DNA of 64,000 nucleotides, taken from assembly GCA_043826435.1 (NCBI GenBank), contig JBDRQF010000007.1, forward strand, positions 973 through 64,972. The letters are read 5' to 3'. Positions 1,219-48,150 of the stretch are shown here, piece after piece (the stretch's first letter is position 1; every line of letters starts with the position of its first letter). Both the position numbers and the translations under genes were made by a program. The stretch is from Elusimicrobiota bacterium. Its GTDB lineage: Bacteria > Elusimicrobiota > Endomicrobiia > CG1-02-37-114 > JAHJSO01. The notes under the pieces were generated by a model, which saw only the letters and a program-made list of their open reading frames with translations, was not told where the DNA came from and did no database searches.

Positions 1219-1219
1219 T

Positions 1220-2326: not shown

Positions 2327-2347
2327 AAACTCGCGGGCGCTTAACTT

Positions 2348-4171: not shown

Positions 4172-4221
4172 TACGCTCATCAGAACAACAGGATACCAAT
4201 GGATAGAAAAGAACTGGGACT
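4172..4221 (+). repeat. 50-bp direct repeat, copy 1 (left of fic)
   Basis: tacgctcatcagaacaacaggataccaatggatagaaaagaactgggact; 48/50 identical to 5634-5683. Confidence 0.95.
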
Positions 4222-4351: not shown

Positions 4352-5398
4352 ATGTTTAAACCAAAATTTGCCATAACGGCTAAAATCAATAAGGCACTTG
4401 TTGAGATAGAACGTGTGCGAGGATTCCTTGATGCTGTTAAACTCAAGGACGACTGGATTTCTGATATGCAGAAAAGAGCACTTATTCTTGAATCTCATCA
4501 TTCCACGCACATTGAGGGAACGGCATTAAGTCTTGAACAGGCAAAAAGCATTCTGGAAGGCAAGAAAATCAAGGGTATCAACCGGGATGACGAGAAAGAA
4601 CTTTTGAATTACAAGAAGGCAATGGATTTTATTTCAAAGTATCTTGGTAAAGAAGACCCTGTCACGGAAGGTCTTATCAGAGAACTACATAAAATATCAG
4701 TAAAAGGAGTGCGTGACGAGCAGGCAGATCCGGGCAATTACAGAAAGATACAAAACTATGTTGTTAATTCCAGAACCCGTGCGGTCATTTACACTCCATC
4801 GCCACCCCTTGACGTTCCTCGTCTTATGAAGGAATTTGTGGAATGGATTAACACCACAGGAGACGTTTCCCCCGTTCTCGTTGCAGGCATATCGCAGTTT
4901 CAGTTCGTCCATATTCACCCGTTTATTGATGGCAATGGCAGGACTGCAAGACTTCTCTCAACGCTTATTCTCTATAAGACCGGCTATGACTTCAAACGGC
5001 TATTTACCATTTCTGAGTATTACGACAAAGACAGGCCAGGTTATTATCAGGCAATACAATCTGTTCGTAGGAATAAGCTGGATATGACCGTATGGTTGGA
5101 GTATTTTGTAAATGGACTGCAGTCACAAATGGAAGAAATCCAGCAAAAAGGGGAACAGATTATAAAACAGGATGTTGCGTTACAGAAGATTAAAAAAATC
5201 GGGTTAAACCTGCGTCAGGAAAAGGCAATTAAATATATCATAAAAAATGGCAAAATTACTGTGAATGAATATCGGTCTGTGGCTTCCTGTATCAGGAGAA
5301 CGGCCCAGAGAGATTTGGAAGAACTGATTGTTAAAGGCGTTATTAAGGCGGTCGCTAAAAGTGCTACAGATCCCACAAAGTATTATGTTTTACTGTAA
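4352..5398 (+). CDS. Fic-family protein (class II-like) with C-terminal winged HTH
   Basis: Canonical HPFIDGNGRTAR Fic motif; N-terminal STHIEG inhibitory motif (S/T)xxxE(G/N); C-terminal HTH (ITVNEY..RRTAQRDLEEL). Confidence 0.92.
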   Translation: MFKPKFAITAKINKALVEIERVRGFLDAVKLKDDWISDMQKRALILESHHSTHIEGTALSLEQAKSILEGKKIKGINRDDEKELLNYKKAMDFISKYLGKEDPVTEGLIRELHKISVKGVRDEQADPGNYRKIQNYVVNSRTRAVIYTPSPPLDVPRLMKEFVEWINTTGDVSPVLVAGISQFQFVHIHPFIDGNGRTARLLSTLILYKTGYDFKRLFTISEYYDKDRPGYYQAIQSVRRNKLDMTVWLEYFVNGLQSQMEEIQQKGEQIIKQDVALQKIKKIGLNLRQEKAIKYIIKNGKITVNEYRSVASCIRRTAQRDLEELIVKGVIKAVAKSATDPTKYYVLL

Positions 5399-5704: not shown

Positions 5705-8700
5705 TTAACCAATTTCTACTTCTGCCAGATGTTCCTTGCGGTCGTCAACAAGCATAATTTCCTTATTTTCCCGTTCAGCGCCGTCAAGTAATACTTTTAT
5801 AACATCGTTTCCCGTTCCTGTAATACTGATGTTTATATGGTAGAAAGTTTCCCTGTGCCTGTAATGCAGTTTAAAGAACTTCCATTCTTCGGGTAAACAA
5901 GGTGAAACAAAACGCAATTTATCAATTTCAACCTTTAATCCAATCAATGATTCAACCAGCAGCCGGTACATCCAGCCGGCAGAACCGGTGTACCATGTCC
6001 AGCCGCCCCGTCCAATGTGTTGAGGATTAGTATATACGTCAGCCGCGACAACATACGGTTCAACTTTATAAGTTAAAATTTCCTTGTTGGTTTTCCCGTG
6101 GTTTATCGGATTAATTATTGAAAACAGTTCCCATGCTTTTTGTTTTTGCCCCATTTTAGCAAATGCCATAATTGCCCAAATCGCAGCATGCGTATATTGT
6201 CCCCCGTTTTCTCTTATTCCCGGAGCATAACCTTTTATGTATCCCGGTTCTTTTGGTGTTTTATCAAAAGGAGGTTTTAATAATAAAATCAATGAATTTT
6301 TTCTGTCAACCAGATGGTTATCAAGAGAATCCATCGCCGTGCGTGATTTATTTAAATCGCCTGCTTCCGATAAAACTGACCAGCTCTGTGAAATGGAATC
6401 GATTTGACACTCTATGTTTTCAGCTGAACCGAGGGCGTCGCCGTTATCAAAATAAGCCCGTAAATACCAATTGTCCTTCCAGCCGTATTCGTCAATATTT
6501 TTCTTCAGTCGGTTTGCCTCGCTAATACAGAATTCCTTAAAATTACCGTCTCCGTGTAAGTTAGCTATTTCGGAAAACTGAATAAACACATGATACAAAA
6601 AGAACCCTAACCAAACGCTTTCTCCTTTACCCTGAACTCCGACAAGGTTCATACCGTCATTCCAGTCCCCGCCGCGCATAAGAGGTAACCCATGATGTCC
6701 GTATTTCAACCCGAATCTGATAGCCCTTACGCAATGCTCATATAAAGTGCCGAGTTCATCGGATTTAGCGGGTTTATCATAATATGACTCTTCTTCCTGT
6801 TTTAATTGACGGCCCTCAATAAAATTTATTTTTTCGTCAAGCACACCCGTGTCTCCGGTAGCCGTAACATAACGGGCGACGGCAAGCGGTAACCATAAGT
6901 AATCGTCCGAACAATGAGTGCGTGTGCCGCGGTCTATCGGCGGGTGCCACCAGTGCTGCACATCTCCTTCTTTAAATTGTTGCGCGGCGGAACGCAGGAT
7001 ATGTTCTCTGACAAGTTCCGGCTTCGCGTAAGTAACAGCCATGACATCCTGTAACTGGTCGCGAAAACCAAACGCTCCGCTTGACTGATAATACCCGCTC
7101 CTGGCAAAAATCCGGCTGGCTAAAGTCTGGTAAAGGAGCCATCCGTTAATCAAAAAATTAACAGGCTGGTCAGGTGTTTCCACATATACAGTGCCGAGGT
7201 TATGTTTCCAGTAATTCCAGACATTTTCCAGTTCGGCATGCGCATAATCGGAATTCCTGAATTTTTGAATAATGTTTTGAATTTCTTCACCGCTTTTTCC
7301 TGAACCAAACGCGAAAATAATTTCACGCTCTTCTTCATCGGCAAGTTCAATTTGTACCTGCATTGTTGCGCAAGGGTCCAGCCCCGGGCCCGTTTTACCG
7401 GATAATTTTGTCAGTTTCATGGCTGACGGGTTGGAAAGAGTTCCGTTCCTGCCGATAAATTCCGCCCTATCTCCTGTGACAGAGCGTTTTGCTTCGTTTA
7501 CATCAAGAAATACAACACGTTTGGAAAATTCGGTACTAAACAAATTTCTGGCAAGCATGGCGCCGCTCTGGGGGTCTATTTCAGTTATGATATGCATTGA
7601 ATTCTTTTGACGTAAAGTGCCGAGCACTAATTCACAATAATTGGTGATTGACAGTTTGCGAAGACGCCCGGAACAATTTTTTATTTTCAGAACAGAAAAC
7701 TTAACGGGGTCGTTTATGGAAACATACACGGTCAAAACAGAGATAATCCCATCATCTTTGTATTCAAAAATGCTGTAACCAAACCCGTGCTTGCTTATAT
7801 AAGGCATGGGGCCCCTTGCCGGTAAAGGTGTCGGAGACCAGAATTTACCTGTTTCTTCATCGCGAATATACATGGTTTCGCCGGTCGTGTCACTAATCGG
7901 GTCATTATACCAAGGGGTAAGACGAAATTCATGCGCATTCTCGCTCCATGTGTATGCCCCTCCGCTCTCTGATATAACCGTTCCGAAATTCGGGTTCGCC
8001 AAAATATTTACCCATGGTAACGGTGTTACCTGCCCCGGTTTTGTAACAATTATATATTCACGGCCGTCTTGAGTAAACCCGCCTATTCCGTTGAAGAAAA
8101 CAAGGTCCGGCCTGATTTCTTCTTTTTGCGGGATATTTTTGCTCTCGTATATTTTTATGGGTTTAACCGCTGTGATAGATGTTTCTAAATGACTCCTGTG
8201 TTCAATTTGTTCTAATAACGTTCCTCCGGTATCTGTGATAACTATACGCGCAACCGTCTGTATTAAAATCTTATCTTCGTCAGAGATATGTTCCGCGCGT
8301 CTTACAAAAATACCTCCCGGATTATTAACTGCATGTGATTCGTGGCTTGCCGCCAGCATGCCCATAATTTGGTCGTGAAGCTGTTGGCGATATACAGAAT
8401 GGTCTTCATTCAAAATCATGAGGTCAACAATAAGTCCTTTTCTTCGCCAGTAGGCATGCGCGCTAATAAGTTGCCGGACAAGTTCTATATTCATACTATC
8501 GCTTATTTTTAGAAGCACTATGGGCAAATCGCCCGAAATACCGTAACCCCATAAATCGGATTGTCCCCGGGTATTTTTGGTTAAGGTAACTGTGTTCGCT
8601 CTCCATAAGGGATTCGCATAAAGTATTGAACTCGTCAGGCTGCTATAAAGATTAGCGTCTGCTTCCGTTGTATTTAATTGCTGCAGAACAATCTGTCCAT

Positions 8701-11700
8701 GCGCCCATGCCAGGGTGAAAACACGGTTCGAAAGATGGCGGTCTTTATATTTTTCAACCAAACTTATTGCATGGTCACGCGTTTCAGTTACACCGGATAT
8801 AACGTCAAACGTAACCGTTTGTTCGGGTTCAACGGTAACAACGTAACGTATTGATACAATCGGGTCCAGGACAAAACCGTCAGTATTTGATAACTCAACC
8901 GAATCGTTAATAACCTGGGGATCATGAATGCTCCTTCCCCTCCCTGTAAATTTTGACCTGTCAGTTTCATAAGAAACCTTATTGGGAGAAGCCCCGTACA
9001 CGTTTACTAAATGGAATAAAAAGGGAGGTTTTTCTTTTTCCGAACTGGGCCGCCTTGTACAAAATATCGCCTTATGAAAGTGTATGATTTCCGTGCGGAT
9101 AAAAAGATTATTAAAAGCAGGATGCAATTCATCCGCTACCGGATTGAGTAAAACGACTTCCGCATAAGTGGTAAAATCAATTGTTTTGCGGGTCCCCGAA
9201 TGATTCGTAACTCTGACCCGGCGAAGTTCAATATCGTCTTCGGGAGAAACAGCAATCTCGGTACATGTTTCAAAATCTAAGTCCTTGCGACGAAATTCCG
9301 CGTGGGCTTGCGAAAATATGGCAGTATAATATTTCGGCTTTTTCAATGCCGGTTGATAAGTATTTGACCATATTTCCTTGTTTGTTAAATCGCGGATATA
9401 ACAAAAGGCGCCACAATCATCGCGAGTGGTATCTTCACGCCAGCGTGTAACATTCAAACCTTTCCAATTACTATACCCACCCCCTGAATTTGTAATCATT
9501 ACATTATATGCGCCGTTAGATAAAAGATGTACTTCCGGTTTCGGCGTATTTGGTGTGTTGAAAACACGCATAAAAGATTCCTTTACGCCTTCAACGTTGA
9601 GATTTCTGGGAGTTCCCGAAAGATGTTGATAAAACGGGATAATTTTTGGAATCCTTTCCTGGAGCAGTAAGACCGCAGATTTAACGGCAAGGTTGTTCTC
9701 AAAACGTCTTTGCATTGGACGGTTAAGCAGTAAATAAGCCAAAGACAATAATGCCATTCCCTGGTGATGGGACATAAAAGATTGAACAACCACTTTTGAC
9801 AACCCGGGCGGTAAACGTGAAGGAGTAAAATCTATTGCCTCATAGAAACCATATCGCCCTTCATAACCTTCTTCAGACATCCTTTGCAGGTTTTCACATG
9901 CTTTTTCAGGAAAAACCATTAATGCCATTACGGAAGCATAAGGCGCTACCACAAGATTTTCAGCCAGGCCCGGCCTGATCCCGAGTTCCTGAATACCGAA
10001 AGCGCTGTACTGGTAATTGAACTGTACGTCGGTTTTATTATATCCGGATTCAGAAATACCCCATGGGACTCCTCTCTGCATACCGTATTTAATCTGCCGG
10101 TTAACGACTGTTTTACAAGTAGCGTCAAGCAAACTATCCTCATAGGTTGGCATTACCAGAAGAGGCATCAGGTATTCAAATATTGAACCGCCCCACGAAA
10201 GTAAAACCGGTTCCCCGCCGGCAATGGTCAGCAACCGCCCTAAAGCAAACCAGTGTTCCACCGGCAGTTGCCTTTTTGCAATTGACACATAACTTATCAT
10301 CCTCGATTCTGATGCCAATAAATCATAATAACCATTATCTTTACGCCTCTGGCTCACATTATATCCTATGCATAGAAGGCGATGTAACTTATCGTATAAA
10401 AATTCAAAATCGGCATCGGCAAATTCGGCGCATTGAAGCGCGAGTTGCTTAATTGCTCCAATCCTCTTTGCGGCACATTCGCTCCCCTTCATTACGGCAT
10501 CAGACAGGTCTCTTAACCACGATATTGTTTCACCAAAAGTCCCATCGCCTGCTCCCGATAACTTATTGATTAAATCTCTTATTACCGGCGATAAAGTTAT
10601 AGGAAGTTCTGCCACTTCATCAAGGTCCGGCGTTTCTTCAAATAATATTCTTGATACCTTCTGAATCCCTGCTGTTTGTATTACTTTTAAGGCTCCCTCT
10701 TTTTGCAATATGTCTTCCGGTTTATTTACCAGGAACATCCATGGAGCAAGAGAAACTAAATCGTCAAGTAATCCGGCGCACTGCATTTTGAATATCCCGT
10801 TCCAGATTTTAACCTGCTCATCGTTTGTTCCGGTAATAAACGCATCCAGTTCCGACGCCGTTGTTTTGACATGGTTCAGGCATGTGTATATGTCTTTAAT
10901 CGACCGGGAATTACATGCGAGGTGTTTTTGAAGTTCTTCTATACACATTGCGGTTTTTTTAGATTTGGATTCGCGTATTTTGTCAATTAATATATATAAT
11001 GTATCTTCCAGCCCTCTGAATATTTCCGGTGAAATTATTTTTCTGCCCGGCAATTCGTTTAAGCCGGATTCCAGCACTAGTAAATGCCCTGCAAGATTGC
11101 CGCTGTCTACGGTTGAAACATACAAAGGATGAAGAGGATTAAGGGACTGCAGGTCGTACCAGTTGTAAAAATGATTTTTGTATCTTTCCAATAAATTCAT
11201 GGTATCAAAAGTATTTTTTATATGTTCAATACAACATCCGGCTGAAACATAACCGAAGTCAAAAGCCGAAAGATTGGCAAGCAGGTATAATCCGATATTT
11301 GTCGGTGAGGTGCGGCGGGACGTTCTTTCAACCGGTTTCTCCTGATAATTGTCCGGTGGCAGCCACTTGCTTTCCGGAGTGACAAATGTTTCAAAATAAT
11401 GCCATGTTTTCCTTGATAATTTGCGTAGGAATAATATTTGCCCGGTATTTAGCAATGGTTTATGGATAGTCAGTGGTTTGCTGAGCCACCATGCTATGGC
11501 AGGGGAAAAAAACCACAAACCTAAAAAAATCCACGATAAGTTTATTATACTTATCTGAAAATAAACAAAATAAATGAAACAACCGGCGGGAATCAGCCAT
11601 GTAACCCACATTGCCCTGATAAATTCAAGCAAATTATTACGGGGGGTTTTTGTAACGTTATGCGAAGGATTCCACTCAAGCATTTTTTTACGGGTGATAA

Positions 11701-14476
11701 ACGTCCTTGTCAAAGTAAGAAATATCGCATGGATACTGTAAAACGCTTCATAAGGCAGTGATATTACCGTAAACAATGCCTGGCAAAGGCGTATTATTAT
11801 CGAATCCAATATGTTGCTATAATGAATTTTTAATGATAATTCTTTGGGTTTTTTCATTGTGTCAATAATTATAGTAAGTAAAGTCGGAATAATTATTATA
11901 CCAGTAATTATCAGAGTTATCAGCCATGACATATCAAGGACAGTCCAGCCCATAAGAAGCAGTATTAACATTGATGCGGGGACGATGCTCCGGCGGAGAT
12001 TGTCAAGTATTTTCCACTGAGAAAGCAAGGACATGGGATTTTTTGTTTTGCCCGGAACAACCGGTTCCAGCCACGATAACAACTGCCAATCACCCCTGAT
12101 CCATCTATGCCTTCTGCTTACGTCGGACAGATAACTGGAAGGATGTTTTTCATAAAACTGTATGTCATTTACAAGCGCTGACCTTACATAACATCCCTCT
12201 ATAAGGTCATGGCTTAATATACGGTTTTCAGGGAAACGATTGCCGAGTAACCTGGAAAACAATTCCACATCATAAATACCCTTGCCGATAAATGAACCCT
12301 CGTAAAAATAATCCTGGTAAACGTCTGATACGACTCTAGTGTAGGGGTCTATGCCCGGTTCACCGCCGAAAATTTTAACAAACCATGACTTGTTCGCATG
12401 CTCCATGTTTACCGCTAAACGCGGCTGAAATATTGTATAACCGTCAACAACTCTCTGTTTTTTTTCATCATAAACCGCTTTATTTAGAGGGTGGGCTATT
12501 GTTCCGACAAGTTTCCGCGCTGAATCAAGCGGCATTCTGGTATCCGTGTCAAGTGTAATTACATATTTAACTTGTTTCAGAATATCAATATTATTCCCTT
12601 CTATTACCGTCCTTTCATCCCTAAAATCACCGCCCGTCAAAAATGCGTTTAATTCCTCAATCTTCCCTCTTTTTCGTTCGTATCCCATCCACACATTTTC
12701 TTTTGCGTTCCATATTCTCGGCCTGTGAAAAAGATAAAAAATATCATTACGGTCCTGTTCGTATTTCTCGTTTAATTCCCCGATACGCTCTCTAATATAA
12801 CTTAAACATTTATCGTCATCAGGCATTGCCTCTTCCGTCGCGTCGGGAAAATCCGTAAGCAGGCTAAAATGCAGGTTTGAATCCCTGTTCGCCAGGAATT
12901 CTATTTCTAATCCTTCCAGCAAATCGTCAATATTATTTTGATTATATATAATTGTGGGGACTACAATAAGCGTGCGCGCTCCGGCAGGGATTCCTTTTGA
13001 AAAATCCATTCTCGGCAATACACCGGGTTTAACAAGGACAGTTATCATCCAGTTTACCAGCGCCGTGGCAAGATTGCTGAAACAAATAAACAATAATGCG
13101 ATGCTCGCTAAAAGGAGCCATCCGTTTATCGCATAAGTGCTGATATACTTAAACACAGCGTTCGAAAAACCTGCCGTGATCGCAAATATTGAGATTAAAT
13201 AAACAAATAAAGGATGTTTCCTGATTTTTTTTTGCAAATATTCAATCAGGGAGGGACGCTTCATGGTCGCTTGTTCCAGGCGGGGCAATCCTTTGTCAAT
13301 CAAGTAGAATCCGACATGAGACATCCTGTCACTTGCGCCTTTTTGCCTTATGTTTTGGACAGCTAATCCCACCGATTTAACCGCAACTTCGTTTTCCGTA
13401 AACCTGCTTTTTTTTGCAATGTTTTCTATGACATGACGATAATGGTCACGGGTTTCAAAATCCATATTAATATATACACCGCCAGGATCATCTTTAAGAA
13501 TGGAATTAACCGAACTTGTTTTTTCAACAAATTCCTTCCAGTCCAGCACATTTAACAGCCTCAAACTATTGATAGTGTTGCCGATAGAAACCTGGTCTGA
13601 AGCCAGCATCTGACTTTCAGCATGGACAAGTTGTTCAATTTTTGTCCCTTCTTCAAAAAGCCTCTGCTCTATCCAGGTAATCGGAAGGGCCAGATGAGTG
13701 CTTTGCCCCTGCAACCGTCTAACAAGTTCTGAAACAAAAGTGCTTGACATGTCCGGGTCTGACCGGGCTAAATCAGCTATTTCTATGACAAGTCCCTTGG
13801 GGTCTTCTCCGACAACCTTCAGCATTCTGTCTGCCCAGTAATTTGCCCTGTCCCTGTCCTTCATCCTGGCATATAGGCGGACCGCTACACGCCTGAGGTT
13901 CTCTAAAAGCGCCAGTCGAAGCATAATGGGGATCGCCCATAATTCGCCTAATTTAAGCACTTTCTCGGACTGGTAGGCGCTAACAAAATTATAAAGATCT
14001 TCTTTGTGTACCCGCCCGTCGGAATGTGATATTAATTTTAGCGCGATATCATATACTCTCGGATATCCTTCCAAATGGCCTTTTTTTAAACGGGGGATTC
14101 CACGGCTGTAATTTTTGGGGAAATGTTGCCTGGCGGTTCGAATTTGTTCTTCAACAAGATAAAAATTGTCTATTAACCATTCTCCAGGCGCAGAGATTTT
14201 ATTCTTGTTTTCAATTGCGGATATTAACAGTTCATAAACATGGGTTAGAATATCTTCGTTTTCCGACAGCCTGGGCAGGAGTTTGTCTTTCCCGCGGGTT
14301 ATATCAACTTCATGGTTTTTGGCAAGTAATTTGGCATACTGTTCCAATTGACTGATACTAAATAATTCAGCCTTCAATGGCTGCTCTATTTTATATTTTT
14401 TTGTGATATCATAACTAATAATTTTTTCTTTTAAACGCTTAAAACTTCCTTTTATTGTATAACTACTGGTTTTCAT
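5705..14476 (-). CDS. ndvB: Cyclic beta-1,2-glucan synthase (Cgs/NdvB/ChvB; GT84 plus GH94 phosphorylase domains)
   Basis: 2923 aa; WLIDNFYLVEEQ, WMGYERKRGK, ITLDTDT, SHDLIEG, RRHRWIRGDWQ (GT core), TM block, LLASESR/WGISES glucoamylase-like region, GAFGFRDQLQD, GDWNDGMN, RENGGQYTHAA, GRGGWTWYTGSAGW (GH94). Confidence 0.95.
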   Translation of the reverse strand: MKTSSYTIKGSFKRLKEKIISYDITKKYKIEQPLKAELFSISQLEQYAKLLAKNHEVDITRGKDKLLPRLSENEDILTHVYELLISAIENKNKISAPGEWLIDNFYLVEEQIRTARQHFPKNYSRGIPRLKKGHLEGYPRVYDIALKLISHSDGRVHKEDLYNFVSAYQSEKVLKLGELWAIPIMLRLALLENLRRVAVRLYARMKDRDRANYWADRMLKVVGEDPKGLVIEIADLARSDPDMSSTFVSELVRRLQGQSTHLALPITWIEQRLFEEGTKIEQLVHAESQMLASDQVSIGNTINSLRLLNVLDWKEFVEKTSSVNSILKDDPGGVYINMDFETRDHYRHVIENIAKKSRFTENEVAVKSVGLAVQNIRQKGASDRMSHVGFYLIDKGLPRLEQATMKRPSLIEYLQKKIRKHPLFVYLISIFAITAGFSNAVFKYISTYAINGWLLLASIALLFICFSNLATALVNWMITVLVKPGVLPRMDFSKGIPAGARTLIVVPTIIYNQNNIDDLLEGLEIEFLANRDSNLHFSLLTDFPDATEEAMPDDDKCLSYIRERIGELNEKYEQDRNDIFYLFHRPRIWNAKENVWMGYERKRGKIEELNAFLTGGDFRDERTVIEGNNIDILKQVKYVITLDTDTRMPLDSARKLVGTIAHPLNKAVYDEKKQRVVDGYTIFQPRLAVNMEHANKSWFVKIFGGEPGIDPYTRVVSDVYQDYFYEGSFIGKGIYDVELFSRLLGNRFPENRILSHDLIEGCYVRSALVNDIQFYEKHPSSYLSDVSRRHRWIRGDWQLLSWLEPVVPGKTKNPMSLLSQWKILDNLRRSIVPASMLILLLMGWTVLDMSWLITLIITGIIIIPTLLTIIIDTMKKPKELSLKIHYSNILDSIIIRLCQALFTVISLPYEAFYSIHAIFLTLTRTFITRKKMLEWNPSHNVTKTPRNNLLEFIRAMWVTWLIPAGCFIYFVYFQISIINLSWIFLGLWFFSPAIAWWLSKPLTIHKPLLNTGQILFLRKLSRKTWHYFETFVTPESKWLPPDNYQEKPVERTSRRTSPTNIGLYLLANLSAFDFGYVSAGCCIEHIKNTFDTMNLLERYKNHFYNWYDLQSLNPLHPLYVSTVDSGNLAGHLLVLESGLNELPGRKIISPEIFRGLEDTLYILIDKIRESKSKKTAMCIEELQKHLACNSRSIKDIYTCLNHVKTTASELDAFITGTNDEQVKIWNGIFKMQCAGLLDDLVSLAPWMFLVNKPEDILQKEGALKVIQTAGIQKVSRILFEETPDLDEVAELPITLSPVIRDLINKLSGAGDGTFGETISWLRDLSDAVMKGSECAAKRIGAIKQLALQCAEFADADFEFLYDKLHRLLCIGYNVSQRRKDNGYYDLLASESRMISYVSIAKRQLPVEHWFALGRLLTIAGGEPVLLSWGGSIFEYLMPLLVMPTYEDSLLDATCKTVVNRQIKYGMQRGVPWGISESGYNKTDVQFNYQYSAFGIQELGIRPGLAENLVVAPYASVMALMVFPEKACENLQRMSEEGYEGRYGFYEAIDFTPSRLPPGLSKVVVQSFMSHHQGMALLSLAYLLLNRPMQRRFENNLAVKSAVLLLQERIPKIIPFYQHLSGTPRNLNVEGVKESFMRVFNTPNTPKPEVHLLSNGAYNVMITNSGGGYSNWKGLNVTRWREDTTRDDCGAFCYIRDLTNKEIWSNTYQPALKKPKYYTAIFSQAHAEFRRKDLDFETCTEIAVSPEDDIELRRVRVTNHSGTRKTIDFTTYAEVVLLNPVADELHPAFNNLFIRTEIIHFHKAIFCTRRPSSEKEKPPFLFHLVNVYGASPNKVSYETDRSKFTGRGRSIHDPQVINDSVELSNTDGFVLDPIVSIRYVVTVEPEQTVTFDVISGVTETRDHAISLVEKYKDRHLSNRVFTLAWAHGQIVLQQLNTTEADANLYSSLTSSILYANPLWRANTVTLTKNTRGQSDLWGYGISGDLPIVLLKISDSMNIELVRQLISAHAYWRRKGLIVDLMILNEDHSVYRQQLHDQIMGMLAASHESHAVNNPGGIFVRRAEHISDEDKILIQTVARIVITDTGGTLLEQIEHRSHLETSITAVKPIKIYESKNIPQKEEIRPDLVFFNGIGGFTQDGREYIIVTKPGQVTPLPWVNILANPNFGTVISESGGAYTWSENAHEFRLTPWYNDPISDTTGETMYIRDEETGKFWSPTPLPARGPMPYISKHGFGYSIFEYKDDGIISVLTVYVSINDPVKFSVLKIKNCSGRLRKLSITNYCELVLGTLRQKNSMHIITEIDPQSGAMLARNLFSTEFSKRVVFLDVNEAKRSVTGDRAEFIGRNGTLSNPSAMKLTKLSGKTGPGLDPCATMQVQIELADEEEREIIFAFGSGKSGEEIQNIIQKFRNSDYAHAELENVWNYWKHNLGTVYVETPDQPVNFLINGWLLYQTLASRIFARSGYYQSSGAFGFRDQLQDVMAVTYAKPELVREHILRSAAQQFKEGDVQHWWHPPIDRGTRTHCSDDYLWLPLAVARYVTATGDTGVLDEKINFIEGRQLKQEEESYYDKPAKSDELGTLYEHCVRAIRFGLKYGHHGLPLMRGGDWNDGMNLVGVQGKGESVWLGFFLYHVFIQFSEIANLHGDGNFKEFCISEANRLKKNIDEYGWKDNWYLRAYFDNGDALGSAENIECQIDSISQSWSVLSEAGDLNKSRTAMDSLDNHLVDRKNSLILLLKPPFDKTPKEPGYIKGYAPGIRENGGQYTHAAIWAIMAFAKMGQKQKAWELFSIINPINHGKTNKEILTYKVEPYVVAADVYTNPQHIGRGGWTWYTGSAGWMYRLLVESLIGLKVEIDKLRFVSPCLPEEWKFFKLHYRHRETFYHINISITGTGNDVIKVLLDGAERENKEIMLVDDRKEHLAEVEIG

Positions 14477-37785: not shown

Positions 37786-38235
37786 CTAAACGTCAAATAT
37801 TATTTTCGTGGTGTATGAGCCATCTTTCCGCCGTTTTATCTTTATGTCGTGGTAAGTCGCCGCCTTGATCTCAAAATTCAGTTTGTGTTTTGCCGGGTCT
37901 ATTTTTTCTCCCGATGCCTCCGCCGACATAAAATATTTTCCCGCCTTTTCTCCCATCCGCTTCACCCTGAACAGGATGAACAGGAATTTGTCCGCACTGA
38001 AACGGTAAACGAGTTCGTTCAGAAAATTTATCAAGAGTGATTCGTAATCAACGCCTTCCGTTTTTATGCGGTATGTTTTCTTCGGCCTGACACCGTCGAC
38101 GCCGTCCAGCATGATGCTGAGCATTCCCGTTGCAGCGTTTTCAAAAAGACCGGCGAGCGTTCCGCCAAAAACCTGCAGGCCAATGTCTGCCGTATGTTCA
38201 ATTATTTTGAATTTCATGAAAGAGGCCGGCCACAC
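37786..38235 (-). CDS. Archease
   Basis: EHTADIG, LINFLNELVY, EIKAATYH, IIFDV. Confidence 0.93.
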   Translation of the reverse strand: MWPASFMKFKIIEHTADIGLQVFGGTLAGLFENAATGMLSIMLDGVDGVRPKKTYRIKTEGVDYESLLINFLNELVYRFSADKFLFILFRVKRMGEKAGKYFMSAEASGEKIDPAKHKLNFEIKAATYHDIKIKRRKDGSYTTKIIFDV

Positions 38236-38271: not shown

Positions 38272-40920
38272 CTACCCGGTATGATTATTGTTGTTCACTT
38301 CTCCGATTATGTGGGCTATACCGGCGAGTTTATCCTCTTCCCCAAGACGGACAAGCCGCACACCCTGGACGTTTCTTCCTATAACCGAAATATCGTTAAC
38401 CGGCTGCCGTATGGTAATCCCGCCGGAGGTAATCAGCATAAGGTCGTCGCCCGGATTCGCCTTTTTTATTCCGACTACCTTACCGTTCCTGTTGGTCGTC
38501 TTTATGTTTATTACTCCCTTGCCGCCCCGCGACTGCAGGCGGTATTTGGAAATCGCCGTCCGCTTGCCGTAACCGTTCTCACAGGCGGTCAGTAAAATAT
38601 CTTCCGACGTCACCGCCTCCATACCCACCACCTCATCGCCCTTACCAAGGCGGATACCCCGGACCCCCTGCGTCGCCCTGCCCATACTTCTTATGTCCGT
38701 CTCCTTAAACCGTATTGATATGCCGTCTCTGGTCGCAATGATAACCTCGCTCTTGGCCGTCGTGCGCTTTACGGATATTAACGTATCGCCGGGATGCAGT
38801 TTTATGCCTATTATTCCGCTCTTGCGTATGTCGGAATAATCTCCCAGTTCCGTCTTTTTTACAAGCCCCTGCCGGGTGCACATCAGAAGGAATGATTTTC
38901 CCTCTTCTTCAAATGATTTTATCGGGATAGACGCTGTTATTTTTTCGTCGGCCGAGAGTTGCATAAGGTTCACAATCGCCTTGCCTTTTGAAATCCTTGA
39001 GCCCTCGGGTATCTCAAATACCCTCATGGAATACACCTTGCCCTTGTTCGTAAAGAACAGCATGTGGGCGTGGGTGTTGCTGACAAACATGTCCTCTATG
39101 AAATCCTCTTCCCTCGTGGTCATACCCGTTACGCCTCTACCGCCGCGGTGCTGCGCCCTGTAGGTTGAAATTGGTATTCTCTTGACATATCCCGCATGTG
39201 AAAGCAGAACCGCCACATCCTCTTCCTGGATGAGGTCTTCTATGTCCATCTCTACCAATTGGGCCTGTATCTTTGTGCGTCTCTCGTCCCCGTATTTTTC
39301 CTTCACTTCCTTCAGTTCCTGCTGGATAATGCCCGTTACCTTTTTGGGGTCCGCCAGCACTGATTTAAGCCGCTCAATGGTTTTGATAAGTTCAAGGTAT
39401 TCGTCTTCAATCTTTTTCCTTTCAAGTCCCGTCAGCTGGTGCAGGCGCATGTCAAGTATGGACTGTGCCTGTATTTTTGTGAAACCAAATTCGTCCATAA
39501 TCGCCGCGCGCGCCGCATCCACGTCCTTTGACTCTTTTATTATTTTGATGATTTTATTCAGGTTCTCAATCGCAATCCTTAACCCCTCAACGATGTGCGC
39601 CCTGTTCTCCGCCTTCTCAAGTTCAAACCTTGTCCTGCGGACAACTATTTCCCTCCGGTGATCAGTGTAACACTGCATCATGTCCTTCATTGGAAGGACA
39701 CGCGGCCGTCCGCCCACGAGGGCCAGCATGATCACGCCGAATGAAGTTTCAAGTTGCGTGTGCTTAAACAACTGGTTCAGCACGATGTTGGCGTTGCCGT
39801 CGCGTTTTACTTCTATAACGACCCGGATGCCGTCCCTGTCGCTCTCGTCCCTGATGTCCGAGATATCTTCCAGTTTCTTCTCTCTTACCAGTCCCGCTAT
39901 TGTCTCAAGCAACTGCGCCTTGTTCACCTGGTAGGGGAGTTCCCCTACAATTATCGCCTGCCTGCCTCCCTTTATATCCTCTATTTCCGCCTTCGCCCTG
40001 ATTTTAAAACTCCCCCTGCCGGTTTCAAAATAGTCCTTTATTCCCTGCCTGCCGCATATAATGCCTGCCGTCGGGAAATCAGGCCCTTTTATTATCTTCA
40101 TAAGTTCCTTGATATCAATGTCCGGGGTTTCCATATACGCAAGAATGCCGTCAACGACTTCACTCAGGTTGTGAGCCGGGATGTTTGTAGCCATGCCGAC
40201 GGCAATCCCGGAAGAGCCGTTTACCAGCAGGTTCGGGAGTTTTGAAGGGAGTACCAGCGGTTCCGTAAGAGAGTTGTCGTAGTTCGGCCCGAAGTCAACC
40301 GTGTTTCTGTCAATGTCGCCTAAAATTTCTTCCGATATCTGCTGCAGGCGGACCTCCGTGTAACGCATGGCAGCCGGCGGGTCGTTGTCAATTGAACCGA
40401 AATTTCCCTGGCCGTCAACCAGCGTATAACGAAGGGAAAAATCCTGCGCCATCCTGACCATTGAATCATATACGGCAACGTCGCCGTGCGGGTGAAATTT
40501 CCCGAGACACTCGCCCACCACGCGGGCTGACTTTTTATGTGCGGTGCTGTGGCGCAATCCCATTTCTTTCATCGTGTAGAGTATGCGGCGGTGTACCGGT
40601 TTGAGCCCGTCCCTGACGTCAGGCAGGGCACGGCCGACGATAACGCTCATTGCGTAGTCAATGTAAGACGTTTTCATCTCGTCTTCTATGTTACGGGGGT
40701 AGATACGCTCGCCCAGGGCAAGTTGAACGCCGTCTGGGGGGATTTTCGTGACATCGGATTTCTTGTCTGCGGGCGGGGTCTGAGCGTCTGGCTGGCGGCC
40801 GTTCTCGGCGGACTGATTTTCTGCCCGGGGTTTGTCTGTCTGCGGTTTCTCTGTCAGGTGTTTGTCGGGCCGAAGTGCGTCCGTATTATCTGATTTTTTT
40901 CTCGGTCGTCCTCGTGGCAT
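38272..40920 (-). CDS. gyrA: DNA gyrase subunit A with about 70-aa N-terminal extension
   Basis: [40 protein letters not shown] (catalytic Tyr), GyrA-box QHRGGRG in the CTD. Confidence 0.98.
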
Positions 40921-40967
40921 TTGTGAAGTTCCTTTCTAAGGTATATCTCTCGGCATTTTAGTTTCTT

Positions 40968-41192
40968 TCAAAAGTTTAAATAAAATTCCTTTGTCTTTTT
41001 GCAAATATCTTTTAAAAACTCTTTTTTTCTTTTATCGTCTGCTCCTGCATAATCAATGAGTAAACCCCTCAACCCAAAAAGCAATTCTCCCCTTAGCAAA
41101 TCCTTTCCTTTATATGGTGTACTCTTTGGCTTATTATAAATTACCTCGTTGCGCATAAAATTCCATTCTTTGCTTTTATTCAGATTTTCCAT
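40968..41192 (-). CDS. Small hypothetical protein, last gene of the RM cassette
   Basis: 74 aa; ATG abuts the upstream stop; AT-rich like the cassette. Confidence 0.55.
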   Translation of the reverse strand: MENLNKSKEWNFMRNEVIYNKPKSTPYKGKDLLRGELLFGLRGLLIDYAGADDKRKKEFLKDICKKTKEFYLNF

Positions 41193-41906
41193 TTATCTTG
41201 GTCTCTTCCGTTTTTCCGGTTTTCGCATAATGAACAAATACTTAAAACCCCTCAAATAAAAATTGTGTTCTCTTGCTAAATTGTGCCAGAGAGGCGTATT
41301 TGATGTTTGATTCTTTCTCGTTATACAAACAATGTCCATCGTGTCAAAATATTTAGAAAGCATCTGATATAACTTAAAACCAACCGGTGTAAATTTTTTC
41401 TTTTTCCACTGGTCTCCAATAAGCCATGCCATAACTTTTCCATATTTCAGAACACGAAATATTTCTTTTGTAGCTTTTTCTAATTCTTCAAAGAACTTTT
41501 CTTTTTCACAAGAAATCTTACCAATGCATGCGGGTTCATTGGAGTATTTTATATTATCCGAATATGGTGAATCGATAAAAACAAAATCCACTGAATTATC
41601 TTTTAATGGAATTTTTCTGGTATCATTTTTAATGATATCTTCTCTATAAGGTGCGATATCATATCCAACTGCCCTTCTTTCAAGTTCTTTTGCTACATCA
41701 ATTGTTGTTCCACTTCCGCACATCGGGTCAACAACCAAATCGCCTTCTTTTGTGTATCTCTGTAATAAGTTCCAAATAATAAAAGCAGGGGTAACTCCAT
41801 TGAATTTATTGTTTCCGTGCGGCTTATCGCCATAATTTTGCCTTGGAAAATCCCAAAGAGTAGTGGATTCTAATATTAATTGATTTTTTATTTTTTCTTG
41901 AACCAT
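41193..41906 (-). CDS. Small amino-methyltransferase (N4/N6 DNA MTase-like or TRM11-like)
   Basis: STTLWDFP, VVDPMCGSGTT (motif I), FIDSPY (motif IV variant), IFRVLK. Confidence 0.82.
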   Translation of the reverse strand: MVQEKIKNQLILESTTLWDFPRQNYGDKPHGNNKFNGVTPAFIIWNLLQRYTKEGDLVVDPMCGSGTTIDVAKELERRAVGYDIAPYREDIIKNDTRKIPLKDNSVDFVFIDSPYSDNIKYSNEPACIGKISCEKEKFFEELEKATKEIFRVLKYGKVMAWLIGDQWKKKKFTPVGFKLYQMLSKYFDTMDIVCITRKNQTSNTPLWHNLAREHNFYLRGFKYLFIMRKPEKRKRPR

Positions 41907-42607
41907 TTGTCAAAAATTGAATCCAAATCATCAAAAATTTTATTAAAATGTTTTACTTTTTTGCTCTCTGGAATCTCTTTAAAAATATATGCTCCATCCA
42001 ATTCGCCGAACTCAACTATTATTCTATTTCTACTAATATCCTTACCAACATCTTTGAAATCATCATCTTTATCAGATGAAACTAAATAACACACTATATT
42101 TTTAGTAATATTCCCACTTTGTAATTTTATTTTCCAATACGCAGCCTGTGCAACCCTTTCCCTCAAACTTGCTTTACAAGAAAGCACTGCAATAACTTTA
42201 AAGTTTAATTTATCATAAATAATTATATCAGCATCGGGTACGATAGAATAATTTGCATAAAGAATTTCAATATTTTTCCTTACTTTCTCCAATTCAGGAC
42301 TAAGTTTATCTCTTCTTAGAGTATCGTCATTTGTAACAGCGGCCATGTCATTCTTTGCATCTTTTATAAAATCTTCAACAATGTAATAAATTAACTTCTG
42401 GAAATTTTTTCCACTCCAAGCATTCCAAGATTGATTAGCATCTTTGCCTTGCTTTTTAGCCCTTTTTATATATTTATCATGGATATCAGAAAAAATATTA
42501 GCAACAAATCCAAAATCATTCTTACCAGCCAATGATTTCTTTTCCTTATAAATTTCTTCTACTTCTTTGAATGTTATCACGGGTGGTCCCCTTTTTTTCT
42601 TCTTCAT
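41888..42607 (-). CDS. Type II restriction endonuclease, BsaWI/Cfr10I-like PD-(D/E)XK
   Basis: WNAWSGKNFQ, IVPDADIIIY, SCKASLRERVAQAAYW. Confidence 0.78.
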   Translation of the reverse strand: MKKKKRGPPVITFKEVEEIYKEKKSLAGKNDFGFVANIFSDIHDKYIKRAKKQGKDANQSWNAWSGKNFQKLIYYIVEDFIKDAKNDMAAVTNDDTLRRDKLSPELEKVRKNIEILYANYSIVPDADIIIYDKLNFKVIAVLSCKASLRERVAQAAYWKIKLQSGNITKNIVCYLVSSDKDDDFKDVGKDISRNRIIVEFGELDGAYIFKEIPESKKVKHFNKIFDDLDSIFDKWFKKK

Positions 42608-43914
42608 ACTTTCTCCATTATAATTATGTATTCAGTCGGATATGCTAATATTTTTTTGTGATTACTTGACGAAGTAAACTGTCCTGTTTTAGGGTCGCGG
42701 GTTGAAGGTAAATTTTTTGAGGGAATTTCTCTTTTTATTATTTTATGAATTTCAAAACCAATGTTTTGCATTTGCTCCGCAAAGACCTCTGCATTTGGAA
42801 CATCTACACCACAAAATGAGGTATCTCCAATAACTATGCACGCCTTACCTCCAACTCTTAATACACGGTACATCTCAATAAAACATTCTCTCATTTCCCC
42901 AAAATACATTGCCACTTCTTCGCTTTTTTTACTGTCTTTTTCTTTTAATTTTTTTATACAAGTCCGTCCTATCTCACTATCAATTTCCAAATTTCTTTTA
43001 TTATGATGTGCCGTCCCAATAAATTTTTTTCTAAATTCCGTTAAACTATCGGTATATTCAAGCCATAACGCTGTCAATTGATGTAAGTCAGCATATTCAT
43101 AAGATGTTACATAGGGTGGCGAAGTAACTACTAAACTTGCTTTTTCATCCTCAACAGGAAGTTTTCTTGCATCCTGACATTTTACAACAGCCCCGCACCC
43201 ATTTGGTATTGTAGCATAAAATTCGGCATTTTTTTTCATCATAGACCTTATTTGTTTTTTGAAAACTTCTATCGGCTCTGTCGGTACCTTATCAAAATCC
43301 CTTGTTGGTTTATTGCTTTTCTGAAGCCATATTGAACAATTTTTAAGAATATTTGAAAACCCACATAAAAAAAACATTTTAATTCCACAATTTTTTATCT
43401 TATTTATATTTGAAAAAATAACTGCTAATTTCTCTTTTGTTCTCTTTGGAAACCAATAATCAATTCTTTCATTTTGAGGTAATTTAACGTTTTTTGTCTT
43501 CTCAATATTTACAAGTAAAGAATCAAATTCTACTGCTACTTTATCGGGTTTTATTGGAATTGTTTTTGCTTTTGATATCAACCATGCAACAAGATTTATA
43601 TCAACACCAATACCAATTCGTTCTGACATTATTGCTTCAACTACTGTTGTCCCGGAACCCATAAACGGGTCAACTACAATATTACCAACATTTGTATATT
43701 CCTCTATTAGCCGTCTTGCAAGTTGAGGAATAAACTTTGCTGGATAACGATGATAGCCATGAGTAATATAAGCAGTATCCTTACGGGTACAATCTGAAAA
43801 TGACCAGGTATAATCAACTCTTGTTTTAGCAAACAATTTTAATATATCAAACGATAATAATTTGGCTTTTTTGGAAATATTTAAAGTTGTGTCTGTTGGA
43901 TAATTATTTAACAT
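42604..43914 (-). CDS. N4-cytosine DNA methyltransferase
   Basis: THGYHRYPAKFIPQL, VVDPFMGSGTT (motif I), VVTSPPY (SPPY motif IV), YRVLR. Confidence 0.9.
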   Translation of the reverse strand: MLNNYPTDTTLNISKKAKLLSFDILKLFAKTRVDYTWSFSDCTRKDTAYITHGYHRYPAKFIPQLARRLIEEYTNVGNIVVDPFMGSGTTVVEAIMSERIGIGVDINLVAWLISKAKTIPIKPDKVAVEFDSLLVNIEKTKNVKLPQNERIDYWFPKRTKEKLAVIFSNINKIKNCGIKMFFLCGFSNILKNCSIWLQKSNKPTRDFDKVPTEPIEVFKKQIRSMMKKNAEFYATIPNGCGAVVKCQDARKLPVEDEKASLVVTSPPYVTSYEYADLHQLTALWLEYTDSLTEFRKKFIGTAHHNKRNLEIDSEIGRTCIKKLKEKDSKKSEEVAMYFGEMRECFIEMYRVLRVGGKACIVIGDTSFCGVDVPNAEVFAEQMQNIGFEIHKIIKREIPSKNLPSTRDPKTGQFTSSSNHKKILAYPTEYIIIMEKV

Positions 43915-43918
43915 TTTT

Positions 43919-46689
<2,771 letters not shown>

Positions 46690-46697
46690 TGGACTAT

Positions 46698-47810
46698 TTA
46701 TACCCTCATCGGCATTATAACGTTCAGATAATTTTCGTCTCCCACCGCTTTCACAACGCACGCATCAATGGGGCCGTTAATTTCAAATATAACCTCCTGC
46801 TCCGAAATATTCTTCAGTATGTCTATTATAAAAATATGGTTAAAAGCAATTTCCAATGGCGGGGCGGAGTAGTCAATTTCTATTTCAACGTCCGCGCTAC
46901 CCAGTTCTTGCGTCTTTGTTGAGACGTTCAGCAGGTTTTTGTCAAATGCAAATTTTACAGACCCGCCTTTTTCCTGCGTAAGGAGAGCGACCTGCCTGGT
47001 CGCTTGGAGAAGGTCTTTCGACTTCACCTTAATTGTTTGCTGGCATTTCTTTGGAATCACCTGTTCATAATTCGGGAAATTGCCTTCAAGCAGGCGCGAT
47101 ATAAGGGTGATGTCTTCCGTCTGAAACGACGCCTGGTTTCCCGTAATGCTGATTTTTATTTCATTGCTGTCCCCGATTGAAAGTATCCTGACAAGTTCAT
47201 TGGTCGCTTTTGAAGGGATTATCGCTTTTGAAATCGTCTTGCTCCCTTTTGCGGGCCTCGTAATGTAAGAGAGCCGTTTACCGTCGGTGGCGACAAATAT
47301 TATCTTCTCCGATTCAATTATTATGTATATGCCAGTCAGGATATACCTCGTGTCGTCCATTGATGCGGCAAAGGATATTTTCTTTATCATTTCTTTCATT
47401 GTTTCCGTTTCAACCGTAATTGCTTTTTCTTCTACGAACCCGGGGAGCGTCGGGAACTGTTCTATTGCGGTGCCGAAAAGCACAAAATGCGATTTACCCG
47501 CCCTGATGTCTATCTGGTTCTTCTCATCAACCTTAAGTTCTATTTTATCGTTCTTGTCAGGCAGTTCCTTTATTATGTTTGCAAACTTTTTTGCAGGGAT
47601 GGTTACCCCGCCCTCTTTTTTTATGTCGGTTGCGACGTAACATCGCACGGCAATTTCAAGGTCAGTCGTGACGAGTTTTAGCCGGTTGCTTTCTTTTTCG
47701 GTCTCAAGGAGTATGTTTGCAAGGACCGGTAAGGTTACTCTTGAAGAAACTGCCGCTTCCACGATCTGAATGCCTTTAAGTAATTCTTCCCTGTTACAGA
47801 TGAGATGCAT
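46698..47810 (-). CDS. dnaN: DNA polymerase III beta clamp
   Basis: TLPVLANILLE, TTDLEIA, ATDGKRL, SRLLEGNFPNYEQVIP, IAFN, VIMPMR. Confidence 0.98.
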   Translation of the reverse strand: MHLICNREELLKGIQIVEAAVSSRVTLPVLANILLETEKESNRLKLVTTDLEIAVRCYVATDIKKEGGVTIPAKKFANIIKELPDKNDKIELKVDEKNQIDIRAGKSHFVLFGTAIEQFPTLPGFVEEKAITVETETMKEMIKKISFAASMDDTRYILTGIYIIIESEKIIFVATDGKRLSYITRPAKGSKTISKAIIPSKATNELVRILSIGDSNEIKISITGNQASFQTEDITLISRLLEGNFPNYEQVIPKKCQQTIKVKSKDLLQATRQVALLTQEKGGSVKFAFDKNLLNVSTKTQELGSADVEIEIDYSAPPLEIAFNHIFIIDILKNISEQEVIFEINGPIDACVVKAVGDENYLNVIMPMRV

Positions 47811-47818
47811 TTTAGACT

Positions 47819-47960
47819 CCCCAAGCGTGCGTTAATTGGTTAGTGCTTTCGCAACGCTTTTTAAGTTGGTAATAACAATTAATAAAACATTCATTTGGTT
47901 GTTTATTTCGCCCCAAGCGTGCGTTAATTGGTTAGTGCTTTCGCAACGCTTTTTAAGTTG
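47819..47960. repeat. Perfect 50-bp direct duplication (47819-47868, 47911-47960) with a 42-bp AT-rich spacer, immediately upstream of dnaN
   Basis: ccccaagcgtgcgttaattggttagtgctttcgcaacgctttttaagttg x2. Confidence 0.97.
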
Positions 47961-48002
47961 AATATTTTCGCTCTATTTTTTGTTTTCATATATCTTTTAT
48001 TA

Positions 48003-48150
48003 TTATATATATAGTAGTCGTATATAGTAGTATGACTGAATTTGTGTGAAACTTCTGCGAAGTTTTAAAAATAAGTCAAAAATGTATGCAAAAGCCCGCA
48101 CAATGAAAGTATAACTTAAAGTGGAAAACCCTCCGGACTTATTCACACTA
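48003..48150 (-). other. Putative oriC unwinding region (DnaA-trio-like tract, degenerate DnaA boxes)
   Basis: Minus strand TTTCACACA, 10 nt, then TACTACTATATACGACTACTATATATA and an AT-rich run; TTATTCACA at about 48139. Confidence 0.6.

Follow-up and report, generated by a model that had tools for sequence, protein, structure and literature searches.

Restriction-modification (RM) units have been described inside operon-like gene clusters, where they share a strand with the genes around them (Furuta, Abe & Kobayashi 2010, PMC2853133; reviewed in PMC2993543). RM pairs of the PabI family lie inside the gltBD and hisBH operons and, in Helicobacter, less than 10 bp downstream of gyrB, and it has been proposed that operon insertion ties the maintenance and expression of an RM unit to the operon via post-segregational killing (PMC4615327). 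Here, we examined an RM cassette in an uncultured Elusimicrobiota bacterium from groundwater, in a 64,000-nucleotide (nt) stretch of contig JBDRQF010000007.1 (assembly GCA_043826435.1, positions 973 to 64,972), the whole of which we call the window. The cassette occupies positions 40968 to 43914, between gyrB and gyrA, and consists of four genes that we call M1, R, M2, and orf74. Its sequence makes it likely that this is an AT-rich Type II RM module, in which two amino-methyltransferases flank an endonuclease of the CCGG family and are followed by orf74, that was acquired horizontally into the gyrB-gyrA spacer and is most likely expressed by read-through. A preliminary description of this DNA had placed an RM cassette here, and the gene order, strand, and every spacing that it gave match the open reading frame (ORF) coordinates exactly. 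The features of the locus are as follows.

46698..47810, minus strand: dnaN, encoding the sliding clamp and leading the putative transcription unit (ORF; DNA_pol3_beta domains in the identical gene of contigs L171 and L172)
46420..46761, minus strand: dciA (Pfam DciA, 45 bits; the ATG start chosen by gene callers gives 89 amino acids)
43919..46393, minus strand: gyrB, 824 amino acids, GC content at third codon positions (GC3) 0.57, native (ORF)
43915..43918, minus strand: AAAA spacer of 4 nt from the gyrB stop to the M1 ATG (sequence)
42604..43914, minus strand: M1, a predicted amino-methyltransferase of 436 amino acids (Pfam N6_N4_Mtase; PADLOC MTase_II)
41888..42607, minus strand: R, a predicted PD-(D/E)XK restriction endonuclease of the CCGG family, 239 amino acids (Pfam RE_BsaWI)
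41193..41906, minus strand: M2, a predicted small amino-methyltransferase of 237 amino acids (Pfam N6_N4_Mtase; PADLOC MTase_II)
40968..41192, minus strand: orf74, 74 amino acids, member of a small family with a predicted three-helix fold (HMMER relatives; AlphaFold2)
40936..40969, minus strand: first of two copies, a degenerate one, of the ribosome-binding site and start of gyrA, GAAAGAAACTAAAATGCCGAGAGATATACCTTAG (sequence; alignment with contig L177)
38272..40920, minus strand: gyrA, 882 amino acids, with its own Shine-Dalgarno sequence GAAAGGAAC (ORF)
38150..38168, minus strand: terminator-like hairpin about 100 nt past the gyrA stop (hairpin scan)

The genes are packed closely. M1 starts after a 4-nt gap from gyrB, M1 and R share a 4-nt ATGA overlap, R and M2 overlap by 19 nt, M2 abuts orf74 at TAAATG (0 nt), and 47 nt separate orf74 from gyrA. 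The minus-strand order dnaN, dciA, gyrB, M1, R, M2, orf74, gyrA is set in a wider neighborhood of ksgA-like and dnaA genes on the dnaN side and archease, NUDIX, and ferredoxin/POR genes beyond gyrA. Base composition marks the cassette off sharply: its GC content is 0.29 to 0.33 versus about 0.50 in the flanks, with the drop falling exactly at the gyrB stop and the recovery at the gyrA start, and GC3 is 0.21 to 0.32 in the four inserted genes versus 0.50 to 0.62 in dnaN, gyrB, and gyrA. The possibility that donor DNA had replaced the 3' end of gyrB was ruled out, as the last 200 codons have a host-like GC3 of 0.54. No integrase or transposase was present within about 10 kb in the gene and Pfam table, as the preliminary description had also noted for mobility genes near the cassette. 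Direct or inverted repeats flanking the cassette were not found beyond chance, nor was a long target duplication. A GATATA hexamer is common to both junctions and is too short for interpretation.

In other lineages, the site is empty. The two genes are adjacent, with a raw gap of at most 471 nt, in 56 of 57 comparison gyrB-gyrA loci, and RM genes lie between them in none of the 57; the statement that gyrB and gyrA are normally neighbors thus holds in this synteny check. The exception is locus L103, in which a fabH-like gene of 340 amino acids (8417-9439) separates the two and shares an ATGA overlap with the stop of gyrB. The gyrB-gyrA spacer therefore accepts other single-gene insertions. When the host gyrB was compared with the GTDB representative genomes and JGI metagenomes, the best matches that covered most of the protein had about 55 to 62% identity (as much as 65% for a partial segment) and came from metagenome-assembled genomes (MAGs) of Elusimicrobiota, Omnitrophota, Nitrospirota, and Desulfobacterota. 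Because the site is empty elsewhere and the composition of the cassette is unameliorated, a lineage-specific horizontal insertion is the only reasonable reading of the locus, and the proposal that the cassette is foreign to the spacer gains from both its low GC3 and the 57 RM-free loci.

The predicted endonuclease, R, matches Pfam RE_BsaWI (PF18643) with 88.2 bits over residues 105 to 209, against a cut-off of 26.2, which is also the outcome of the HMM search that had been suggested for it. There are 81 detectable homologues, with 46 to 79% identity, and all of them carry PF18643. A direct sequence search of R against the PDB gave no match, and a profile built from 24 R sequences matched BsaWI (4ZSF) with an E value of 0.016. 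In BsaWI, a lysine and an aspartate are catalytic, and CCGG is read by a continuous R-(D/E)-R motif (PMC4652773). In the profile alignment, K145-A-S-L-R149-E150-R151 of R corresponds to K165-T-S-I-R169-D170-R171 of BsaWI, and P124-D125 corresponds to the D145 region. P124-D125, K145, and R149-E150-R151 are intact in R and invariant or nearly so across the 24 homologues. The AlphaFold2 model of R has a predicted local distance difference test (pLDDT) score of 90.5, and the six best PDB matches found with Foldseek all belong to the CCGG family (PfoI, PspGI, AgeI, BsaWI, and Kpn2I), with a probability of 1.00. R thus shares its predicted fold with the Type IIP enzymes BsaWI, AgeI, Kpn2I, PfoI, and PspGI (PMC4652773, PMC5389614, PMC6344858), at Foldseek E values of 4e-9 to 5e-4, and shares with BsaWI the PD...K core, the continuous R-(D/E)-R motif, and the K-x3-R spacing. 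It differs from the CCGG-family enzymes in sequence (14 to 18% identity) and in length, being shorter at 239 versus 258 to 312 amino acids, and D175, which in BsaWI is the second acidic residue, aligns with an alanine in R. By sequence and model, R appears to be an intact CCGG-family enzyme whose target core is probably CCGG or CCNGG. The BsaWI-like assignment made at the outset is borne out by Pfam, fold, and motifs, and the WCCGGW specificity attached to it is one of several possibilities within the family.

Both predicted methyltransferases belong to the same Pfam family. M1 matches N6_N4_Mtase (PF01555) with 86.7 bits, above the cut-off, and PADLOC MTase_II end to end (8.6e-59); its motifs run in the order motif I (FMGSGTT), variable region, and motif IV (SPPY), and its homologues, with 43 to 58% identity, adjoin BsaWI-like R genes. 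The earlier label of N4C methyltransferase therefore holds for M1 at the level of the amino-methyltransferase family by Pfam, with N4C itself merely suggested by the SPPY motif. M2, which had been called a second small methyltransferase, is predicted to be one by the same measure, at 84.5 bits for N6_N4_Mtase, above the cut-off, and an end-to-end match to PADLOC MTase_II. Its motif I is DPMCGSGTT. No other gene of the module is nearly as well conserved as M2, whose homologues have 56 to 90% identity even where R has only 30 to 35%.

The same module recurs in other genomes. M1-R-M2 is found in the same order in MAGs of Zambryskibacteria, Staskawiczbacteria, Cloacimonadota, Chloroflexota, and Nitrospira, with identities of 43 to 58% for M1, 35 to 60% for R, and 67 to 90% for M2. 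Among the module loci found in other genomes, M1-R-M2 never stands beside gyrase genes. Pairing of methyltransferase and R genes is recurrent, with three architectures (M1-R, R-M2, and M1-R-M2) at at least 30 loci in different phyla. Since M1-R and R-M2 loci both exist, either methyltransferase can evidently be the sole partner of a BsaWI-like R. The nearest relative is L168, a 1.8-kb contig with a GC content of 0.32, in which R is 79% and M2 86% identical; M1 is 82% identical over its last 60 or so residues, the sole part of M1 on that contig. The donor pool is AT-rich and looks like bacteria of the Candidate Phyla Radiation (CPR). Searches of the IMG/VR viral contigs, the PLSDB plasmids, and the INPHARED phages gave no relatives of R. 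Elsewhere, the module often follows a regulator gene, such as an HTH_3 gene in L083 or a LexA-like gene in L085. The latter is a free gene (4058-4708) that lies 17 nt upstream of M1 in a CPR genome, and another CPR locus, L203, encodes a 613-amino-acid fusion of LexA DNA-binding, S24 peptidase, and Eco57I/N6_Mtase domains (3041-4882); the linkage of LexA to CPR RM modules hints at SOS-type control.

The fourth gene, orf74, has no match in Pfam, NCBIfam, or PADLOC. A word-indexed search returned one homologue, P0083, with 66% identity, and an exhaustive HMMER scan of 1.8 billion representatives yielded 11 genuine relatives of 69 to 115 amino acids. The top match of that scan, P0084 (2,186 amino acids, 21 stretches), was set aside as a low-complexity repeat artifact. 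An exact-pattern scan for orf74 DNA in genome contigs found nothing. E9, W10, E16, L38, and Y71 are invariant in the alignment, which also fits a 77-amino-acid ORF between R and M2 in L083. AlphaFold2 predicts a three-helix bundle (pLDDT 90.6), for which the PDB held no match at an E value below 1. Family members lie beside BsaWI-like R genes in L083 (6691-6924) and L208 (231-443), beside an N6_N4 methyltransferase and an MvaI/BcnI-like R gene in an Aenigmarchaeota MAG (L202, 5001-5228), beside the LexA-Eco57I/N6_Mtase fusion in L203 (5001-5228), and beside another N6_N4 methyltransferase in L209 (1169-1423); the hosts are CPR, DPANN, and other uncultured lineages. Thus, orf74 is not the orphan that it was first taken for, since homologues exist, and by sequence it belongs to a small, uncharacterized, RM-associated accessory family of proteins of 70 to 84 amino acids with a predicted three-helix fold. 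Controller (C) proteins such as C.Kpn2I (PMC6237814) are a natural comparison, because orf74-family genes are likewise small and lie beside or upstream of R genes. Unlike C proteins, orf74 shows no helix-turn-helix (HTH) signature, and L083 has a classical HTH_3 gene in addition to its orf74-family gene. An HTH controller role was ruled out: orf74 has no HTH signature in Pfam, NCBIfam, or PADLOC and no match to an HTH fold.

The homologue P0083 sits on L177, a 532-nt AT-rich contig (ENA ERZ27293391 k141_147610) that aligns to the window once M1-R-M2 is removed. The first element is a gyrB 3' tail, CTGGATATATAAAAAATG, which runs straight into the orf74 homologue (66% amino acid identity); this gyrB relic has 13 codons and ends in GAAGTAAGAAATCTGGATATATAAAAAATG, where the window has GAAGTGAAGAACCTGGATATATAAAAAAATG. 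Then follows GAAAGGAACTT-N5-ATGCCAAGGGGAAAACCGAAAAAATAA, equivalent to the gyrA Shine-Dalgarno sequence and first codons of the window, with a gyrA-like start of 8 codons, MPRGKPKK-stop, versus MPRGRPRKK... in the window. Last comes an unrelated gene with weak resemblance to DUF1016. These sequences indicate that part of a gyrB-orf74-gyrA locus moved to another genome and took fragments of both gyrase genes with it. Among other RM loci, gyrB or gyrA relics beside the module were seen in L177 only, and a scan of viral contigs for the L177 junction found nothing. The window itself contains two gyrA heads, a degenerate copy at 40969-40936 followed by the real one. The degenerate head encodes a 6-codon mini-ORF, MPRDIP-stop (40956-40936); the stop of this mini-ORF and the Shine-Dalgarno sequence of the real gyrA overlap. 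The Shine-Dalgarno sequence and start of gyrA are present as a degenerate tandem duplication of about 33 nt at the right end of the cassette.

L177 bears on how the cassette came together. In a nested origin, orf74 would have been the first gene in the gyrB-gyrA spacer, the M1-R-M2 block would have arrived afterward, exactly between the stop of gyrB and the ATG of orf74, and the four genes would not be one unit. This is the alternative that survives best, and we give it a little less than an even chance. It would explain why L177 equals the window minus M1-R-M2, with the gyrB tail joined directly to the orf74 homologue, and it suits L168, the closest relative of M1-R-M2, which has an unrelated small ORF downstream. 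Against this, orf74-family genes are linked to BsaWI-like R genes elsewhere, in the order R-small-M2 in L083 and small-R in L208, and L177 is accounted for just as well by a four-gene unit that lost M1-R-M2 via a shared AAATG microhomology. Moreover, L177 is a single contig of only 532 nt. The relics on L177 and the duplicated gyrA head in the window also lead to a bolder idea, which we regard as improbable: the gyrB-gyrA spacer would be a dedicated landing site, and the cassette, carrying gyrB 3' and gyrA 5' relics as homology arms, would be reinserted there by recombination, in a homing-like manner and without an integrase. If true, this would be a defense module that targets an essential, universally conserved operon without an integrase.

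The real gyrA head has a peculiarity of its own. Codons 1 to 72 (40705-40920) form a lineage-specific N-terminal extension of about 70 amino acids that opens with MPRGRPRKK, an AT-hook-like sequence; relatives align to gyrA only from residue 50 to 78 onward. The extension includes three 15-nt (5-amino-acid) repeats at 40817-40866, and its GC3, 0.57, is host-like.

Next to acquisition stands the question of expression. The cassette is on the same strand as its neighbors, and in a scan of 38 to 50 kb, no terminator-like site on the coding strand lay between dnaN-gyrB and the end of gyrA; the only one, at 38168-38150, follows gyrA, in line with the arrangement first described. G-rich Shine-Dalgarno sequences precede dnaN (GGGGAG), gyrB, and gyrA. 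R has GGAG, M2 overlaps R and has no Shine-Dalgarno sequence, and orf74 abuts M2. M1 also has none and starts 4 nt past the gyrB stop, from which we infer termination-reinitiation coupling. There is no regulator gene, recognizable promoter, or terminator belonging to the cassette itself, which makes expression by read-through most likely, and cotranscription with the gyrase operon is likely on these sequence features. The dnaN-dciA-gyrB transcript would then be read through into the cassette, and ribosomes would be passed on from the gyrB stop across 4 nt to M1, through ATGA into R, through the 19-nt overlap into M2, and through TAAATG into orf74. This gene order would give the methyltransferase before the endonuclease, and gyrA would be reinitiated from its own Shine-Dalgarno sequence.

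A semiautonomous cassette is a less probable alternative. In it, internal promoters would drive R, M2, orf74, and much of gyrA, so that the operon would be split by the cassette rather than having the cassette wired into it. A TGGACA-17-AAGAAT element at 41338-41310, upstream of orf74 and gyrA, and, about 45 nt upstream of gyrA, a TTGAAA element in overlap with the orf74 stop are candidates for such promoters, and both the retained Shine-Dalgarno sequence of gyrA and the good GGAG of R are compatible with independent expression. However, the promoter-like matches are all at chance level: 26 sigma-70-like matches were found in the region versus 21 +/- 5 expected, a figure to be read with the proviso that the promoter type of the host may differ. 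Neither M1 nor M2 has a Shine-Dalgarno sequence, and each overlaps or abuts the gene before it, a pattern in keeping with coupling rather than independent expression, and no regulator gene of the kind that precedes the module elsewhere lies upstream of it at the gyrB-gyrA cassette. We consider the semiautonomous arrangement unlikely and favor read-through.

Several observations nevertheless weigh against our overall reading of an acquired RM module expressed with the gyrase operon. Four sigma-70-like matches of 9/12 lie on the coding strand within the cassette (43265, 42152, 42048, and 41338), and, AT-rich DNA being promoter-like, an internal promoter feeding R, M2, orf74, or gyrA is conceivable. 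The metatranscriptomes X10 to X12, from the study of metagenomic run X2, contained nothing from this organism. Motif IV of M2, DSPY, is noncanonical, the variant being conserved in its homologues. Finally, searches of the GTDB representatives and the JGI metagenomes with the host gyrB turned up no close relative without the cassette, the matches staying at or below about 62% identity along most of the protein, so the insertion is read from distant synteny and composition.

We counted candidate target sites in the window with the cassette left out (61 kb) and compared the observed numbers with those expected (O/E). CCGG occurs 363 times versus 405 expected (O/E 0.90), ACCGGT 14 versus 14.7 (0.95), TCCGGA 20 versus 20.6 (0.97), GCCGGC 32 versus 31.2 (1.02), and CCCGGG 28 versus 25.9 (1.08); WCCGGW occurs 64 times. 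No candidate site of the CCGG family is thus avoided, and the count confirms what had been said of host avoidance from ACCGGT alone. The ACCGGT positions given for the window were right at 40595 and 46086, and those given as 45467 and 49619 are at 45458 and 49620. The same DNA strongly avoids TCGA (O/E 0.17), CTAG (0.22), AGCT (0.24), GATC (0.27), and GTATAC (0.08; 1 observed versus 12 expected), with GGCC at 0.53 and CGCG at about 0.5. This suggests that the host has long been exposed to other restriction systems, with no such mark for the CCGG family. The recent arrival proposed before fits both this lack of avoidance and the unameliorated GC3, although full methylation would likewise lift any selection against the sites.

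Lack of avoidance would also be compatible with an RM module that is a decaying or inactive passenger, with a dead endonuclease and orphan methyltransferases, tolerated as harmless. We think this improbable, since none of the four ORFs is broken or varies among six assemblies from 2018 to 2025, and R retains all the residues that are invariant across the 24 members (PD, K145, and R-E-R) in a confidently predicted structure. How an active module would be kept is a separate matter. The cassette had been thought protected from loss by polarity on gyrA, but this argument is weak: a clean deletion recreates the ancestral gyrB-gyrA operon, so that polarity penalizes disruptive mutations only. By analogy with the systems described above, we infer maintenance by post-segregational killing rather than by polarity.

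The stretch is physically real and recurs in groundwater metagenomes from several studies and years (runs from 2018 to 2025). Logan contigs from runs X2 (2025), X4 (2018), and X5 (2019) span the gyrB/M1 and orf74/gyrA junctions, and the depth at the junctions equals that of the flanks, at about 50 (50/45/55), 225 (220/227/224/236), and 7, respectively. In X1, a single contig covers 38000-47818, and contigs of X3, X6, X7, and X8 also span one or both junctions. Mis-assembly at the junctions, which the preliminary description had named as one finding that would undo it, was looked for: contigs of even depth, from at least six independent runs, cross them, and among the contigs of the runs examined, none joins gyrB directly to gyrA by skipping the cassette. 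An assembly chimera, in which AT-rich DNA of a co-occurring CPR bacterium was misjoined into the gyrB-gyrA locus, is vanishingly improbable and is excluded for practical purposes, because, although the composition of the cassette resembles that of CPR genomes with the same module (GC content of 0.29 to 0.34), eight runs from at least five studies cross one or both junctions (X1 and X3 being small, low-complexity datasets), cassette depth equals that of the flanks, and the alternative joint was not found. Six separate assemblies from 2018 to 2025 have an identical R gene in the same context and zero nucleotide differences within the cassette. The insertion is fixed in the population over seven years.

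Variation around the cassette was also recorded. Among the six assemblies of the species, the 8.8 kb centered on the cassette (39336-48100) contains one variable site, 44239, and the flanks are more variable, with about 45 variable sites in 33.7 to 39.3 kb and 11 in 48.1 to 51.6 kb. The low-variation segment could reflect a recent sweep, recombinational spread, or merely the small number of genomes. A strain of the same species (99.5 to 100% nucleotide identity) carries an intein in gyrB, as 1,303 nt between 45016 and 45018 (L171, 2938-4240) with Intein_splicing and HNH_3 homing endonuclease domains; the intein-bearing gyrB encodes a precursor of 1,258 amino acids. In X2, X4, and X5, the unitigs are interrupted exactly at 45016/45018, and intein-plus and intein-minus alleles probably coexist in the populations. 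Just before dnaN, a 50-nt direct repeat, CAACTTAAAAAGCGTTGCGAAAGCACTAACCAATTAACGCACGCTTGGGG, occurs in two copies with a 92-nt period (47819-47960) and includes the dnaN Shine-Dalgarno region. One copy is absent in X1/L172 (a 92-nt skip in X1), and depth is doubled there in X2 and X4. The AT-rich stretch beside the repeat, 47970-48040, may be the origin unwinding element. Far from the cassette, a second low-GC (0.32 to 0.42), defense-type island at 181-5398 encodes an EcoRI-like adenine methyltransferase (447 bits), a GmrSD_N+HNH protein, a 567-amino-acid protein without a family, and a Fic-domain protein, and GAATTC is present 21 times in the window; a giant minus-strand ORF of 2,923 amino acids lies at 5705-14476.

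If the cassette is cotranscribed as proposed, it is a natural example of a defense module that relies for its expression on an essential, origin-proximal operon. The case could be used to test whether operon insertion stabilizes RM units, shields AT-rich foreign DNA from silencing, or ties restriction and methylation to gyrase expression. Two by-products of the analysis are perhaps more useful: an uncharacterized family, predicted to be three-helix, beside several kinds of RM system, and the indication from gene neighborhoods that an endonuclease of the CCGG family can be paired with one or the other of two different methyltransferases or with both.

Insertion of RM units into operons has already been described, and the cassette adds an unusually clean case to that known kind; the principle is not new. 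Like the class described by Furuta and colleagues (PMC2853133, PMC2993543), it is a Type II RM module without a linked integrase or transposase, placed on the same strand between functionally linked genes at a translation start/stop boundary that leaves both neighbors intact. It differs from that class in that its host operon is the essential, origin-proximal gyrB-gyrA pair, that it has two methyltransferases and a small accessory gene, and that no long target duplication was found flanking it, the only duplication being the tandem one of about 33 nt at the gyrA start. The Helicobacter PabI-family pair (PMC4615327) resembles it in lying less than 10 bp past the gyrB stop, on the same strand, and in its long inheritance. 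There, however, the downstream neighbor is an outer membrane protein gene and not gyrA, and the enzyme is a DNA glycosylase as opposed to a CCGG-family PD-(D/E)XK endonuclease. What is specific to the present cassette is the gyrB-gyrA host pair, an M1 gene without a ribosome-binding site, the two-methyltransferase architecture, the orf74 family, and the L177 relic.

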